Assembly (NCBI GenBank): GCA_963706325.1
Contig: CAVPLT010000001.1
Location: 1,024,001-1,088,000, forward strand
DNA length: 64,000 bases
Source of the DNA: an uncultured Nitrospiraceae bacterium
GTDB taxonomy: Bacteria; Nitrospirota; Nitrospiria; Nitrospirales; Nitrospiraceae
Direction of reading: 5' to 3'
Shown: in pieces, positions 42,001-51,000 of the stretch
How the letters are laid out: each line of letters opens with the position of its first letter
Numbering within the stretch: the first letter of the stretch is position 1
Made by a program: the position numbers

Positions 42001-45000
42001 ATGCGATAGCCGGCGATGAGCGTAAAGACGCCATAGTCGTCACGTTTTCGGGCGACCTGCTCGACGGCGCCGAGGAGTTCGCTGAGCTGCGCTTTTTCAG
42101 CGAGGATCGCTGCGTACAGGGCTCGTTTGGTCGGGAAATACTTGAACACCAGGGCTTCGCTGATCCCGGCGGCACGAGCGATTTCCTTCGTCGTCGTGCC
42201 CTTGAAGCCTTTCGCAGCAAATAAGGCGGCGGCGGATGCAATCAGGCTGGCCTGGCGATCACGGCTTGGGCTGCGCGAAAGTGATGTCGTTGGACCCATG
42301 CTGTCCTGGTTGGGTGAGTGAGTAGTCACTCACCATGAAATTATCACGTGCCTGAAGGGCGAGACAAGGAGATAAGAAAGGAAGTTGAAGAGTCTCATTC
42401 ACGCGGGAGGTGTCCCTGGCTGTGTTTTTCCAGGTCTACGGCATAATTCCAGACGGCGCCTCCTTAAGGCGCGGGCGAAGGGCTCTCATTGAATTGGCTG
42501 CGGAAGACCTGACTCTCAAAGAAGATCACCCCCTGGCTCGTGCGCACGTCGTAACGCAGGATGATCTCACTGTCGGCGCCTTGCCAATTGAAGAACTTCA
42601 CGGCGCCTCCGGCGACCTGGCCCGGAGTCCGGTCCAGCGGGCCGAACTTCTGCTGTAGGAAACTCAGGATGCGGTCGTGCGACTCTTTGCCGCTGTACCG
42701 CACCATGACGCGCGCAAAGTTTCCGTCGATCGTGCTGAACCGCATGGAATCAACCGGCGCCGGCCCCAATGTGGGAGTCGTCCCTTTGAGCTCGTACGTC
42801 TGCACCCGGCCACTGTCCTCAATCTTGATGAACGTGTCGGATTCTGAGAAGGCCGCCCCCCAGGGAATGCCCTCGAATCCATTCGAGTCATGCTGCATGG
42901 GAACTGCCAGCGCTGCGGCGACCGGGAGCCACATGGCTAGCATCACGGCTCGAGCAAAGATCGTCCGAGGCGTGCGAAGGATGCAGGTAAGTCGACACAT
43001 ATTACTCCGCCGTGTCCGCGATCCGATCCTGGAACCGAGGCGCCAGGTTTCGGCTCTCAATGAAGATGAACCCACGGTCTCGGTTGGCTTGGTAAGTAAG
43101 GCTGATTTCGGTATCCGGCCCGCGCCACGTGTATTGCTGATTGAGCCCCCGCAGCATCTGTCCGGGGAGGCGCTCGATCGCGCCATAGGCCTGTTCGAGA
43201 AATTGGAGCACTTTCGTGTGAGTGTGCGCGCCTTGATAGCGAACGGTGACGCGTGCAAACTGCGCATCGACCGTAGAAAGCTGCAGGCTTTCCACGGGGA
43301 TGTCGGCATAAACCGGGGGACGATCGCGGAATTCGTAATCTGTGGTATGCGAATTGGTGCGCGCGATGGAGAGTTCAGGAATATCGGCGAGAGGCACGCC
43401 CCATGGAATCTGGTGAAACCCCTGTGGATCGTTCGTCATGGTGATGGCAAACGCCGGTCCTGCAGGAAAGGCCAGGAGTGCCCCAAAAACGAGGAGGCGG
43501 CCGATGACGCGGAGGGGTGACCATATCGAAGAGGCGTACAGCATGGTCGAAAGTCTCCTCCGGCACGCTACCATGGTTGTCTCGATGGCGGCAACTCTTC
43601 GGCGCTGTTCTTGTGAATGATGGACCCCTTGGCTATAATGCGCCTCTTGCGCACATCATGAAGGCGATAGAGGCAGAGGCATGATCGATAGCGACGTATT
43701 TGTGCAAGCGCTCCAAGATATGGGCGTGAATTTTTTTACGGGCGTGCCCGACTCGAACCTGGGCGGGATCATTGAAGAACTGATGACGCGTAAAGCGTAC
43801 ACCCCTGCCGTGCGTGAAGATGAAGCGATCGCGATGGCCGCGGGCGCCTATATGGCCGGGAAGATTCCCGCCGTACTCATGCAGAATTCAGGGCTCGGCA
43901 CTTGCTTGAACACGCTCATTTCCCTGAATATGATGTATCGGCATCCCTGCATTCTGCTCGTCTCCTGGCGGGGGTTCCAAGGCAACGATGCGCCGGAGCA
44001 CCTCGTCATGGGCGAGACGATGTTGCCCTTGCTTGATACCATGAAAATTCCCCACCGCATCCTGTCGGAACAGACGATGACCGACGATCTTCGATGGGTC
44101 GGCCAGACCTTTATGAAACAACGGATTCCGCTTGTGCTCGCGGTCAAGAAAAACATCGTCAAGGGACTGCACCCATGAGGCCGGAAGAAGGCACCATGCA
44201 GAGCCGAGCGCAGGCCATGGCGGCATTACTGGAAGTATTGACCGATCAGCCGGTCATTATTTGTAATGGCTTTCCGTCTCGCGAAGCGCACAAAATCGCC
44301 GACCGGCCGACCCATTTTTATATGATCGGTTCAATGGGAAATGCGGCGGCGATTGGGCTCGGCGTGGCATTATCCAGGCCTACCAAACAGGTCATTATTT
44401 TTGATGGCGACGGCAATGTGCTCATGGGGATGGGGACTCTGGCGTCGGTGGGGGCCTTGAAGCCAAAGAATTTCATTCATGTCGTCTTCGACAATGAAGT
44501 GTACGGATCGACCGGAAATCAGCCGACCATCTCGAACGTGGTGCCGCTGGAAAAAGTGGCGAAGGCGGCGGGATATGTTCATGTCGAGCGGGTGCTCGAT
44601 CGGGATGATCTTCTGTATGAATTTAAGGACTTGCTGAAGAAAGACGGACCGAGCATGTTGTTGGTCAAGATCAATGAATTCGTCGAGGATGCCGGCCGGG
44701 TCCTTCTTGAGCCGTCGGCGATTACCGCTCGATTCATGAAAGCCATAGAATAGCGCCCGTGTGCTGAGTGCGATGTGTGGGGCCGCTGCGCTCAGTCCCG
44801 ATCCACAGCCTGAGGCATTGAACATGATACTTTTGAATCCAGGGCCAGTGAACGTGAGCGAACGGGTGCGGCAGGCGTTGATGCATCCGGATATCTGCCA
44901 CCGAGAATCCGAATTCTCCGACCTTTTGTACCGCATTCAGCAGAAATTACTGACCGCCTTCGTGCCCGGGGCAGAGGCCGACTATGTGGCGGTCATACTG

Positions 45001-48000: not shown

Positions 48001-51000
48001 TGCGATATTGGACAAGCTCGACTGGTTTCTCTGGATGGCCGCGTTTGGCTCAACGGTATTTTGGTTGTTGATGGTTTGGGTCATACGACCTTCGGCACGG
48101 GCCCGTGCTTAAAGCAGCCCTTTTTTTCCTCGGGGCGCTGACTCTTTCTTTCCTGATCTGGCACATCGGCATCGAGCGGATCTATGCCGCGGTTGCTGAA
48201 CTGAGTCCTACCGCGATGGCGGCGATCCTTCTGCCGTCCCTTCTCATGTACGTGCTTGAAGCTTACGGCTGGCTTGTGACGCTCGGCGCGTGGGCGAAGG
48301 ATGTGCCGTTTTGGCGAGTGCTGGCCATTCGCACGGCCGGGGAAGTTGTGAACATGACCACGCCCACGGCTTATATGGGCGGTGAGCCGCTCAAGGCCTA
48401 CCTGCTCAAACGACAAGGCGTCCCACTGGTGGAAGGGTTGGCGTCGGTGGTGACGGCGAAAACCACCATGACAATCGCTCAAATTCTCTTCATCATCTGC
48501 GGGATTGGTTTGGGGTTTTGGTTGTTAGGGTCCGAGGGATCGGCCGGACAGACCATCATCGCCGGATTAATCAGCGTGGGACTGCTGGTGTTCGGAGTCG
48601 GCGCGTTTGTCATCGTTCAGCGGCAGGGCATGTTTACTTGGATTTTGAAGGTTCTGCGCCACATCGGCCTGCGGCTGCAGTTTCTGGAATCACGCGAACA
48701 AAAGTTGCTTGAATTGGATCGCACCATCGCTCACTTCTATGCGAAGCAGCGGCCGGCGTTCCTCTTATCCACGGGGCTGTTCCTTCTCGGATGGTTGGCC
48801 GAGGCCTTGGAAGTCTTGGTCATCATTTTCTGCCTGGGACATCCTATTACGGTGCTGTCTGCCGTCGCGATCGGCGCGCTCTCGGTCTTTATCAAGGGCG
48901 GAGCATTTTTCATTCCCGGTAGCCTGGGGGCTCAAGAGGCGGGCAACCTTTTCCTATTGACGGCCTTCGGATACGGGGAAGTCACGGGCATTACCTTTGC
49001 GCTGTTGCGACGCTTCCGAGAATTGGTGTGGATCCTGCTTGGTCTCGCCTGTCTCGTCGTGATGACAAGGGGCAAGGAGGTGATGACGTCTTCCCGCTGA
49101 ACAGGCTCTTTGAAGCGTGAATGATAGTGTCTTGGTTTCCGGAAATCGCTGGGCCCTTTCTGCCCCCCTCGCCGCCAGGATCGCAACGTCCCTCCTCATG
49201 CATGATTTCGCGACCGTGCAATTCCGCTCCTTCGCACGGGTGCGATTTCGCACATAGGTAATTTTTCATGTCAATCTAAGGTATTGTCCGAAAGGAAATT
49301 GCACGACAATTCCATTATCAGCTTCACTATATTTCATTATGCAAGTAAGCTTCAGGCGTCAGACGTTCCTTCGTGGTCGATGCTGTAGACTAACCAGGAT
49401 GCCAGCAAACCATGACTCAACCAAATTTTCTAAGTGCTGAGATCCAACCACGGCTGGAAGATCAGGCTCGGACTATGGCTACAGACAAGAAGGATGGGCA
49501 ACTGGTGCTTCCGCTCGAGGACCCCATCGCGGCACTCAATTTTTGTCGAGCATTGGCCGCGGCTATGCAATGCGACGCCCAACCCACGCAGGATCATGGG
49601 CAGGTCTCACAATTACATGTGATCTCAAAGGAGCAGGATGGTGCACGACCGCTCCCCCTGTTGTCGATCGTCATTCCAGTCTTTAATGAGGCTGATAATC
49701 TTCCCACTCTGCATACGCGTCTCACCGACGCGATGAATCGCTTGGGAGTCGACTATGAAATCGTGCTGGTTGACGATGGGAGCAAGGATCAGAGTCCTGA
49801 AATCCTGAAACGTCTGGAGGGTGAGGACTGCCGAATCGTCGTCATCGAGTTTGCGAGAAATTTTGGGCATCAAGTCGCCATCAGCGCCGGGCTTGAGCAT
49901 AGTCGGGGCCGCGCTGTCTGTATTATGGATGCCGATCTCCAGGATCCTCCGGAGGTGTTGCACATGTTCCTTGCCAAGTGGCAAGAAGGCTGGGAAGTGG
50001 TCTATGCCGTGCGCACCGATCGGAAGGAATGGTGGGGCAAGCGGCTCGCCTATGCCGCGTTCTACCGCTTGCTCCAACGGATCGCCAATATCGAGATTCC
50101 TTTGGATGCCGGCGATTTTTGCGTCATGGATCGCCGGGTAGTGGATGAGCTGGTTGGGATGCCGGAACGTAATCGATTCGTCAGGGGTATCCGAAGCTGG
50201 GTGGGCTTCAGGCAGATCGGCGTCCGCTACGAGCGCCAGGCTCGCCATGCCGGCAGTCCCAAATATACGTTTCGGAAGCTGCTCTACCTGGCGCTTGATG
50301 GGCTCGTCTCATTCAGCCACATGCCGCTGCGGATTATCACGATTCTTGGTTTTGCCGTGTCTGCGCTATCGTTCATGGTCGCGATGTTTTATGTCATCAA
50401 GAAGATAACGCTGGGAATCGATGCTCCTGGCTTCACCACCCTCGTCGTCTCGATCTTCTTTCTCGCGGGTATTCAGTTGATGACCATCGGGGTCATCGGC
50501 GAATACATCGGCCGGATTTCAGACGAAGTGAAACACCGTCCGTTGTATGTGGCCCGTCGCGTGACCAGGAGATAGCCATCATTCGTATCCTCATGTTCGA
50601 TAACGAATTCCCTCCGCTCGGGGGCGGCACCGGAGTGGTCAACTATTACCTGTTGCAGGAAATGGCACGGTCCCAGGATGTCACGGTGGATTTGGTGACG
50701 TCGTCGCGCAGCGGGACCGCCTATGAAACCGAACGGTTCGCTGACCGCATCACGATCTATAAGGTACCGGTCGACAACCGCAACATTCACCATGCGAGCA
50801 ACTTGGAATTGCTCCGGTACAGCTGGCGCGGCCTGCGCATGGCGCGGCGATTGTTGAAGCAACATCGGTATGACGTGAGTTTTGCCTTCGCCGGGGTGCC
50901 CGCCGGAGCGCTCAGCTATGTCTTGTCCTTGACCCACGGCCTGCCCTATGTGCTGTCGCTGCAGGGGCCCGATGTGCCGGGGTTTGAGGCGCGCTACAAC

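Follow-up and report, generated by a model that had tools for sequence, protein, structure and literature searches.

Six consecutive genes of an uncultured Nitrospiraceae bacterium (assembly GCA_963706325.1) form a real operon that is near-core in the GTDB order Nitrospirales, and the three-locus gene set to which it belongs probably directs the biosynthesis of a phosphonate head group for membrane lipids, the likely product being a 2-aminoethylphosphonate (AEP) or 1-hydroxy-AEP lipid. The scheme that we infer from gene content, motifs and co-occurrence, with all its reactions, its order of hydroxylation and its acceptor, would run as follows. A PepM–PntC fusion, either with a non-canonical EDNx[FY]PKRCS loop and usually encoded beside the operon or canonical and encoded elsewhere, would convert PEP to phosphonopyruvate, from which the split decarboxylase would yield phosphonoacetaldehyde and the transaminase AEP; an unlinked 2OG-Fe(II) oxygenase would probably hydroxylate C1 in most of the family; PntC would then form the CMP-phosphonate, a CDP-alcohol phosphotransferase would place the phosphonate on a lipid alcohol, and an HpnL-like protein would flip or tailor the product. 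Nitrospirales are abundant nitrite oxidisers and comammox bacteria of soil, fresh water, the sea and treatment plants, and a near-core phosphonolipid, if real, would make them a constant biological supplier of reduced phosphorus and could provide a lipid biomarker for the order.

Operon genes and their distribution

The window analyzed is a 64,000-nucleotide stretch (positions 1,024,001 to 1,088,000 of contig CAVPLT010000001.1), and all six genes that an earlier note had placed in it were found on the forward strand at 43681–49100, with three overlapping junctions. The first two encode the halves of a phosphonopyruvate decarboxylase (Ppd), namely alpha (43681–44178, TPP_enzyme_N), with the Ppd-type motifs GVPDS, QNSG and DAPEH, and beta (44175–44753, TPP_enzyme_C), with a GDG motif and an ATGA overlap with alpha. 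They are followed by a class V AEP transaminase (44824–45918), whose PLP lysine K191 lies in KCIQGFPG and whose best PDB matches are 1M32 (PhnW) and 6PD1, and by a PntC-type cytidylyltransferase (45915–46634), in which R12, K22 and K153 align with the essential R15, K25 and K153 of Treponema PntC. The fifth gene (46658–48112) fuses a weak NTP_transf_3-like N-domain to a CDP-alcohol phosphotransferase with the motif DCCDGEVAR...G...D...D, and the sixth (48105–49100) encodes a flippase-like LPG_synthase_TM/HpnL-like membrane protein scoring above the TIGR00374 cut-off and below that of TIGR03476 (147.4 against 195.65). The previously reported transaminase score, 356.5 against a TIGR03301 cut-off of 360.8, was reproduced, and both decarboxylase halves likewise fall below their family cut-off, which is that of the fused protein. 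The best solved relatives of the pathway proteins are PhnW, the Treponema PntC-AEPT and a Streptomyces PepM. A complex prediction for alpha, beta and the transaminase gave a score of 0.00, which speaks neither way.

A sigma-70-like promoter match (TTGTGA-17-TATAAT, 10/12; 43611–43639, forward strand) lies 42 nt upstream of the alpha start; it is a consensus match only, with six such sites found against 3.1 expected in shuffles. Divergently, on the reverse strand, lies a pair of paralogs: a conserved hypothetical gene (43002–43574), for which the atlas search returned no family, and a second copy (42464–43309), whose true start is probably near 43186. In relatives this pair leads into the non-canonical PEP mutase, and the empty site at 42330–42463 corresponds to the place between the pair and tetR where G114 and G096 hold a non-canonical PepM–PntC fusion.

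Decarboxylase beta was found in 148 of the 151 order genomes, the CDP-alcohol transferase domain in 144 and an intact transaminase KCIQGxPG motif in 143. The cytidylyltransferase was present in 167 of 176 family genomes, a count that takes in the unpublished G282 and G284, both positive, and was not found in genera g3 (0/3), g10 (0/2), g9, g102 and g107. The earlier claim that every genome of the order carries the operon is wrong. The colinearity proposed with it held well, since alpha, beta and the transaminase were colinear at 23 of 23 mapped loci and the cytidylyltransferase and CDP-alcohol transferase came next at 20 of them. Outside the order, 113 genomes of the phylum gave partial matches only, at no more than 47% identity, in 26.

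Acceptor and relation to known systems

The default acceptor for the CDP-alcohol phosphotransferase family is a diacylglycerol-type lipid. From the same genes the earlier note had predicted constitutive production of AEP lipids or glycans; an AEP-type pathway in which the phosphonate is activated with CMP and handed on by a CDP-alcohol phosphotransferase agrees with the analysis, while neither the glycan part nor constitutive production gained support. CMP-AEP might serve to decorate LPS or EPS at the cell surface, as in the Bacteroides fragilis or Treponema Pnt pathways, given that a glycosyltransferase, flippase and methyltransferase block (49412–59292) stands directly downstream in the window and that several members of the genus have the canonical mutase at the head of an EPS cluster. 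However, this block is a lineage-specific insert that is absent in G110, where the operon runs on into cstA, so a glycan is not supported for the operon and the downstream glycosyltransferases were dropped as part of the system. Moreover, the conserved transfer enzyme is the CDP-alcohol phosphotransferase, with no LicD-type family found among the operon proteins, and we consider glycan decoration improbable. A role of the phosphonolipid as a replacement of phosphatidylethanolamine was also rejected, phosphatidylserine decarboxylase being present in 150 of 151 genomes.

The architecture of the fifth gene, for which IPCT/DIPP synthase is the best model, also raised a soluble phosphonate diester solute, made as di-myo-inositol phosphate is by an NTP-transferase/CDP-alcohol transferase fusion; the product of IPCT/DIPP synthase is soluble. 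This is decidedly improbable, because the match lies far below the cut-off (92 against 580 bits), the N-domain is weak (E 4e-4) and missing in family f4, and the flippase-like gene overlaps the fusion gene.

Within the preferred lipid reading, the acceptor could be the side chain of a hopanoid (bacteriohopanepolyol), and the product would then be a phosphonate-capped hopanoid. The last operon gene is HpnL-like; polyprenyl synthase, DUF422 and SCP2 sterol-carrier genes and an epimerase-family gene, which we take to be HpnA-like, occur near the operon or the non-canonical mutase; a squalene-cyclase-fold protein sits between PntC and the CDP-alcohol transferase at all four loci read in families f3 and f4; and squalene-hopene cyclase was present in five of five genomes tested. 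We nevertheless regard this sub-case as rather unlikely: in this genome 125 kb separate the cyclase gene from the operon, and where the phosphonate genes have been lost the HpnL-like gene is missing too although the cyclase is kept, so that the HpnL-like gene follows the phosphonate pathway rather than the synthesis of hopanoids. HpnL itself is without established function according to the available part of PMC12324291.

Homologs were found of all seven core genes that the accessible portion of Li and Horsman (2022, PMC8942020) gives for the 'Burkholderiales_CDP-OH' or Group 1 phosphonolipid ppm cluster, namely Ppm-PntC, Ppd, AEPT, a second PntC, a 2OG oxygenase, a CDP-alcohol transferase and an LPG-synthase-domain protein. 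Identity to the Mycetohabitans cluster is 36–39% for Ppd, 43% for the transaminase (PLP lysine kept), 33% for PntC, 28% for the CDP-alcohol transferase, 31% for the HpnL-like protein, 49% for the oxygenase and 69% for the canonical PepM domain. In this genome the set includes Ppd with Ppd-type motifs, AEP transaminase, a stand-alone PntC, a CDP-alcohol transferase with an LPG-synthase-domain protein, and an oxygenase in trans (contig C1:901363-902121, after lolA), the last suggesting that most of the family makes 1-hydroxy-AEP and not plain AEP. Unlike the Group 1 cluster, the Nitrospirales genes are dispersed over three loci, the decarboxylase is split, the CDP-alcohol transferase bears an additional N-domain, the oxygenase occurs patchily outside the family of this genome (35/66, 0/14 and 0/3), a quarter of the genomes have a mutase that lacks the EDKX5NS motif, and the set is near-core and chromosomal across the order. 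As the mutase and oxygenase are unlinked in the genus, instead of all genes lying around ppm, the set would work like Group 1 but would not be filed there by the rule of ppm plus five genes as the accessible text states it. That same text records a phosphonolipid characterized from no group 1 cluster, and cultured Nitrospira, being harmless, would offer a direct route to a first structure from this large, chemically unsolved family.

The Pnt pathway, as described for PntC Tde1415 and Ari1348 in the accessible part of Rice et al. (2019, PMC6697681), follows the same Ppm-Ppd-AEPT-PntC logic, with equivalents of R15, K25 and K153 kept and 6PD1 as best PDB match; it differs in that transfer in Nitrospira would rely on a CDP-alcohol phosphotransferase, the tested PntC shows low similarity (E 1.8e-14) and the substrate is putative. 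Earlier publications already mention phosphonate clusters in Nitrospira. Literature on Nitrospira phosphonates and polar lipids, on PEP mutase and, since 2019, on phosphonolipids, in the portions available, yielded no description of the operon, the atypical mutase motif or a Nitrospira phosphonolipid, and survey supplements may list Nitrospira clusters; new here are the census, the mutase exclusivity, the oxygenase and the decayed relic.

Two forms of PEP mutase

A canonical PEP mutase with an EDKLFPKTNS loop, unlinked to the operon, was found in 110 of 151 order genomes, and a non-canonical form with an EDNxFPKRCS loop, usually beside the operon, in 36. Both occur together in two genomes, against about 26 expected under independence, with at least nine switches on a 41-taxon operon tree, and counting both forms PepM is fused to PntC in 144 genomes. 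The earlier PEP mutase tally cannot be kept, since it mixes canonical PepM, the sub-cut-off non-canonical form and methylisocitrate-lyase-like matches with KKCGH/KRCGH loops (G108, G033).

The non-canonical loop reads EDNV[FY]PKRCSF at 29 of 30 loci and EDSVFPKRCSF at one, with Asn for the canonical Lys and Cys for Asn. The protein lacks the EDKX5NS motif and misses the TIGR02320 cut-off (276.5 against 319.55), scoring 272.9 with the phosphonopyruvate hydrolase model (TIGR02321; PDB 2DUA), also under its cut-off. It shares the fold of PEP mutase (PDB 5UNC, 1PYM), with TM 0.93 and 50% identity to 5UNC, retains the WxSG, DxD, Glu, Arg and His positions common to mutase and hydrolase, and shows the PntC fusion and Ppd context without canonical ppm. 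Consistently, Ppd alpha and beta homologs lie within 7 kb of the atypical mutase at 35 of 43 non-Nitrospirales loci, the canonical motif occurring at none of the 43. The non-canonical form branches outside the canonical clade, not within it, but this branching order is only a lead because the tree has FastTree supports of 0.77–0.99, three outgroup sequences and sequences picked with the non-canonical profile. The accessible text of both phosphonate surveys describes an EDKX5NS filter, which would remove the non-canonical form; should that form prove to be a functional PEP mutase, surveys that rely on the standard motif overlook a quarter of the order, along with clusters in many other phyla.

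A search of the whole assembly found no pepM, as had been noted before, and the suggestion that it was lost in an assembly gap gained support, the flanking block seen in relatives being gone as well. The absence most likely reflects a gap, up to ~140 kb long, to which enolase and glmU were lost as well, and we infer that the missing mutase is the canonical form; the three closest relatives carry the PepM–PntC fusion. Four soil metagenome runs, searched with the G005 pepM region at 80% likeness, gave short pepM-like pieces, none of them linked to this organism by a contig. Within the genus, the canonical mutase is often accompanied by a fused Ppd of its own at the start of a polysaccharide cluster, and may thus serve that cluster first.

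Relic genomes and the decarboxylase substrate

Seven genomes of four genera, 96–100% complete, lack PEP mutase, cytidylyltransferase and the unlinked oxygenase: G025, G108 and G124 are without both mutases, PntC, CDP-alcohol transferase, HpnL-like protein and oxygenase, and G369, G370, G371 and G368 are without mutase, PntC and oxygenase. All seven have another residue in place of the transaminase PLP lysine (D, D, D, E, E, V, G). The three relic genomes treed form one clade (UFBoot 100), so the co-loss was probably a single event, and three independent losses were rejected. The co-loss adds the oxygenase as seventh gene, completing the Burkholderiales 'group 1 phosphonolipid' core, and together with the lost PLP lysine favors a phosphonate over a sulfonate pathway.

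A sulfonate pathway would have the decarboxylase act on sulfopyruvate (ComDE, TIGR03845/TIGR03846) and the transaminase make taurine, and the earlier note had cautioned that the subunits score as high for that enzyme. This is true of beta, which scores 186 for ComE against 172.3 for TIGR03297 and shows 39% identity to Leisingera ComE but 34–37% to Ppd halves, and the two-gene alpha/beta layout is also that of ComDE; it is not true of alpha (ComD 108.2, TIGR03297 123.7), and both subunits miss the ComDE cut-offs (147.95 for alpha, 221.5 for beta). Alpha carries GVPxS, QNSGLG and DxPxH, common to four of four Ppd and not to ComD (one annotated ComD compared), and neither PhnX, PhnA nor ComA, the one sulfopyruvate source looked for, reached its cut-off in five of five genomes tested. 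The cytidylyltransferase and the CDP-alcohol transferase require a substrate containing phosphorus, and the genes decay once PEP mutase is lost. The alpha active-site motifs, the lack of ComA and the co-loss largely remove the doubt, leaving a sulfonate pathway extremely improbable.

Salvage or degradation of environmental AEP is scarcely credible either. The transaminase is a PhnW homolog, this assembly lacks pepM, and one metagenome study that counts Nitrospirota among carriers of AEP-degradation genes (PMC10734540) reads their phnW matches in this way; against this, PhnX and PhnA came nowhere near cut-off in the five genomes, salvage does not need a decarboxylase, and the transaminase decays when PepM is gone. 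If the biosynthetic reading is true, such phnW matches are to be read as synthesis, not degradation.

Relic alpha, beta and transaminase genes are under purifying selection (dN/dS about 0.13–0.24, with dS near saturation in control pairs), which the phosphonate pathway alone does not explain. A wider reading, tentative and somewhat doubtful when all its parts are taken jointly, would make the EDNxFPKRCS proteins genuine PEP mutases of a second family, one that branched early, keeps the cysteine loop of the methylisocitrate-lyase superfamily, is freely swapped with canonical PepM in Nitrospirales and is spread over Planctomycetota, Myxococcota (including Sorangium cellulosum), Methylomirabilota/Rokubacteria, Binatia, Acidobacteriota and Actinomycetota, motif-filtered surveys thus undercounting phosphonate producers; abundant nitrifiers would produce a 1-hydroxy-AEP membrane lipid not described before, perhaps linked to hopanoids, and a second, non-catalytic role of the decarboxylase and transaminase would keep dead copies under selection. 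In G031 and G048, where a fused Ppd adjoins the canonical mutase, the motifs of the split decarboxylase have decayed.

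Distribution and predicted route of the operon

As the earlier note had proposed, an operon lies at 43681-49100 of the window, where six co-oriented genes encode the alpha and beta subunits of a split phosphonopyruvate decarboxylase (Ppd), a class V transaminase, a cytidylyltransferase, an NTP-like/CDP-alcohol phosphotransferase fusion and an LPG_synthase_TM/HpnL-like protein. Genes overlap at three of the operon junctions, and a promoter-like match was found 42 nt upstream. The note's further claim, that every Nitrospirales genome carries the operon, proved too broad. Of 151 evenly sampled GTDB genomes of the order (completeness >=90%), 148 have the beta subunit, 144 have the CDP-alcohol domain and 143 show the transaminase motif KCIQGxPG (a reversed control pattern gave 0 matches), while the cytidylyltransferase was found in 167/176 family genomes, the positives including the unpublished G282 and G284. 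Two of the cytidylyltransferase-negative genomes, each 95% complete, lack any match to the operon: G311, which has pepM, the PEP mutase gene, and G281, which does not. The alpha-beta-transaminase order was kept in all 23 mapped loci, with the cytidylyltransferase and CDP-alcohol transferase next in 20 and the HpnL-like gene seen in 17. Outside the order, 113 genomes of the phylum yielded partial matches only, in 26 of them and at <=47% identity. These counts make the operon specific to the order and near-core, not universal. The note's description of production as constitutive likewise finds no support for this operon.

In the proposed pathway, PEP would be converted to phosphonopyruvate, then to phosphonoacetaldehyde and 2-aminoethylphosphonate (AEP); after optional hydroxylation at C1, the phosphonate would be activated with CMP, transferred onto a lipid alcohol and finally flipped. 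That the decarboxylase is instead of the sulfopyruvate type (ComDE) is most improbable: beta is slightly nearer ComE, but the alpha motifs GVPxS, QNSGLG and DxPxH are common to four Ppd and missing from Leisingera ComD. In five genomes, no match to ComA, PhnX or PhnA reached its cut-off. The operon cytidylyltransferase retains the equivalents of R15, K25 and K153, proven essential in Treponema PntC according to the account of PntC chemistry in PMC6697681. Passages in the literature place phosphonate clusters in all Nitrospira MAGs (PMC9765116), describe them as most abundant in Nitrospirae (bioRxiv 818815) and report pepM and phnW in Nitrospirota (PMC10734540); these passages give neither pathway nor product, and passages of PMC9239080, PMC7849160 and PMC10579370 contain nothing about this pathway. 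This type of cluster is known from PMC8942020, which points out that it has so far yielded no characterised phosphonolipid. Judged by its genes, the set is very probably a near-core, dispersed variant of this known, chemically unsolved phosphonolipid pathway, and its exchangeable non-canonical mutase, unlinked oxygenase and relic clade offer sharp, cheap tests.

The missing pepM and two forms of PEP mutase

A TIGR02320 search gave no match in the source assembly, an absence that the earlier note had regarded as probably due to a gap. Orthologs of enolase, glmU, glmS, gatA, gatB, recO, truA and fba (names assigned from sequences) are also missing, and the complete genome of the relative G022 has a stretch of ~142 kb, pepM included, with no counterpart here. 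The left flank of this block corresponds to the very start of contig C2 and the right flank lies inside C7, so that ~142 kb is an upper guide to the gap size. Canonical pepM is present in all closest relatives (G291, G296, G295 and G005), and in G291, G295, G005 and G092 it borders the block missing here. An assembly gap is the best explanation for the absent gene, and at the start of C2 the missing sequence would be expected to hold a canonical pepM adjoining the recO-glgA block; a comparison with soil sequencing runs provided no proof of the gap. A ~125 bp intergenic repeat occurs in many copies in the source genome (G000) and its relatives (L016, L024 and L025, nucleotide comparisons).

The order has two PepM-PntC fusions, mutually only ~35% identical. 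The canonical form B (EDKLFPKTNS) scored above cut-off in 110/151 genomes, at varying unlinked sites; form A was present in 36/151, with the motif EDNV[FY]PKRCSF in 29 of 30 loci and EDSV in one. Some genomes have a second canonical pepM, which in G296 (L298) is a duplicate of form B and in G138 (L001:1003-2439) is of the N-terminal cytidylyltransferase fusion type. Form A lies <=7 kb from the decarboxylase in 14 of the 17 Nitrospirales-labelled loci of >=9 kb. The window encodes, at 42464-43574 (minus strand), a tandem paralog pair of unassigned proteins with hydrophobic N-termini, one of which adjoins form A even where the operon is relocated (G081 and G127). In G114 and G096, form A has the divergent paralog pair on one side and tetR on the other; the same site is empty in the window. 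The two forms occur together only in G011 and G145, both fragmented assemblies, against ~26 genomes expected under independence (our own arithmetic; kin are not independent). Both mutase states are found within each of genera g2, g6, g16, g21 and g25, and parsimony on a 41-taxon operon tree gives at least nine switches. Exchange with form B would account for the supply of the pathway where the operon locus has no mutase. Form A scored 276.5 for PepM versus 272.9 for phosphonopyruvate hydrolase, and its best match in both sequence and structure was Streptomyces PepM 5UNC.

A GTDB motif scan returned at least 120 matches, 80 of them with flanks. Among the matches listed, 45 non-Nitrospirales loci were >=9 kb, and setting aside 2 chance matches left 43, in which both decarboxylase halves (35/43), the transaminase (16/43) and the CDP-alcohol transferase (8/43) were found and the canonical motif was not (0/43). 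The best 150 cluster representatives comprised 91 canonical, 20 EDxxxPKxCS, 28 other (many EDN..NS) and 11 unread motifs, and FastTree placed the cysteine forms as a grade below the canonical clade. EDKX5NS is the filter named in passages of both published surveys. On the strength of its exchangeability and context, form A is quite likely a working PEP mutase. Further examples were a form A-PntC fusion with split decarboxylase in cultured Sorangium cellulosum So ce56 (L121:6677-10241), where no matching transaminase was found <=7 kb from form A; a Nitrospinota form A, 69% to the Nitrospirales form and followed by two methyltransferases (L161:6665-10040); and an EDNxFPKRCS protein of an uncultured archaeon (L122:4827-12193), encoded in a cluster that also includes a fused decarboxylase, a homocitrate-synthase-like gene and two genes for B12 radical SAM proteins and is reminiscent of a pathway to a small-molecule phosphonate.

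A relic clade and an unlinked oxygenase

In three genomes of ~100% completeness (G025, G108 and G124), squalene-hopene cyclase is retained but neither mutase is present, nor are the genes for the cytidylyltransferase, the CDP-alcohol transferase and the HpnL-like protein; in G025 and G124, alpha-beta-transaminase is followed directly by cstA. Mutase and cytidylyltransferase are likewise absent from G369, G370, G371 and G368. Alpha, beta and transaminase are intact at all seven loci (L057, L058, L059 and L302-L305 in G025, G124, G108, G369, G370, G368 and G371, respectively), with drifting decarboxylase motifs. The transaminase lysine aligning with the PLP lysine of PhnW is substituted in 7/7. 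Since G025, G108 and G124 form one clade in the operon tree, the loss was probably one event. The relic genes are under purifying selection in the three genomes measured (dN/dS ~0.13-0.24), which argues against a simple loss story and suggests a non-catalytic role, possibly structural. The split decarboxylase also decays in G031 and G048, where a fused Ppd adjoins form B. The paralog pair is retained in the relic clade.

An annotated Mycetohabitans cluster combines a CDP-alcohol transferase, an LPG-synthase-domain protein, a cytidylyltransferase, pepM, ppd and a transaminase with a 2OG-Fe(II) oxygenase, whose homolog in the source genome (49%) lies 166 kb upstream of the operon, after lolA. 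The oxygenase was found in 64/67 family genomes and is absent precisely from G025, G108 and G124, where the lolA sites are intact with other genes next; G369, G370, G371 and G368 also lack it, and outside the family it is patchy (35/66, 0/14 and 0/3). Group 1 clusters are predicted to yield 1-hydroxy phosphonates in the relevant passage of Li and Horsman (PMC8942020), so, with this distribution, most members of the Nitrospiraceae family are predicted to make hydroxy-AEP and the others plain AEP.

Acceptor and product

Phosphatidylserine decarboxylase occurs in 150/151 genomes, ruling out a lipid that replaces phosphatidylethanolamine, so the predicted lipid would be additional to it. A hopanoid acceptor is unlikely: hopanoid-related neighbour genes recur, but the HpnL-like gene tracks the phosphonate genes rather than the cyclase, and HpnL function is described as not established in a passage of PMC12324291. 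Near the operon, the window holds polyprenyl synthase, epimerase-family, DUF422 and cytochrome c genes at 19831-23845 (minus strand) and an SCP2 sterol-carrier gene at 36572-36937 (plus strand); the same genes flank form A in G003. In families f3 and f4 the operon has an insertion encoding a ~325 aa protein with a squalene-cyclase/prenyltransferase fold, which in Binatia comes after form A (loci L068:9774-10757, L069, L072, L073 and L129:8405-9367 for the two settings together); no homolog was found in the source genome.

The earlier note had allowed for glycans besides lipids. The block downstream of the operon (49412-59292), between it and cstA, encodes GT2 and GT4 glycosyltransferases, a polysaccharide flippase, a LarA-like protein, an FkbM methyltransferase and a PMT-like transferase; it is a lineage-specific local insert, which speaks against a glycan product of the operon. 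A phosphonoglycan is more plausible at a second locus, an EPS cluster with form B and a fused Ppd at its head. Both cstA (61354-63377) and a DNA methyltransferase gene (23838-25042) are broken across consecutive frames, as pseudogenes or through assembly errors.
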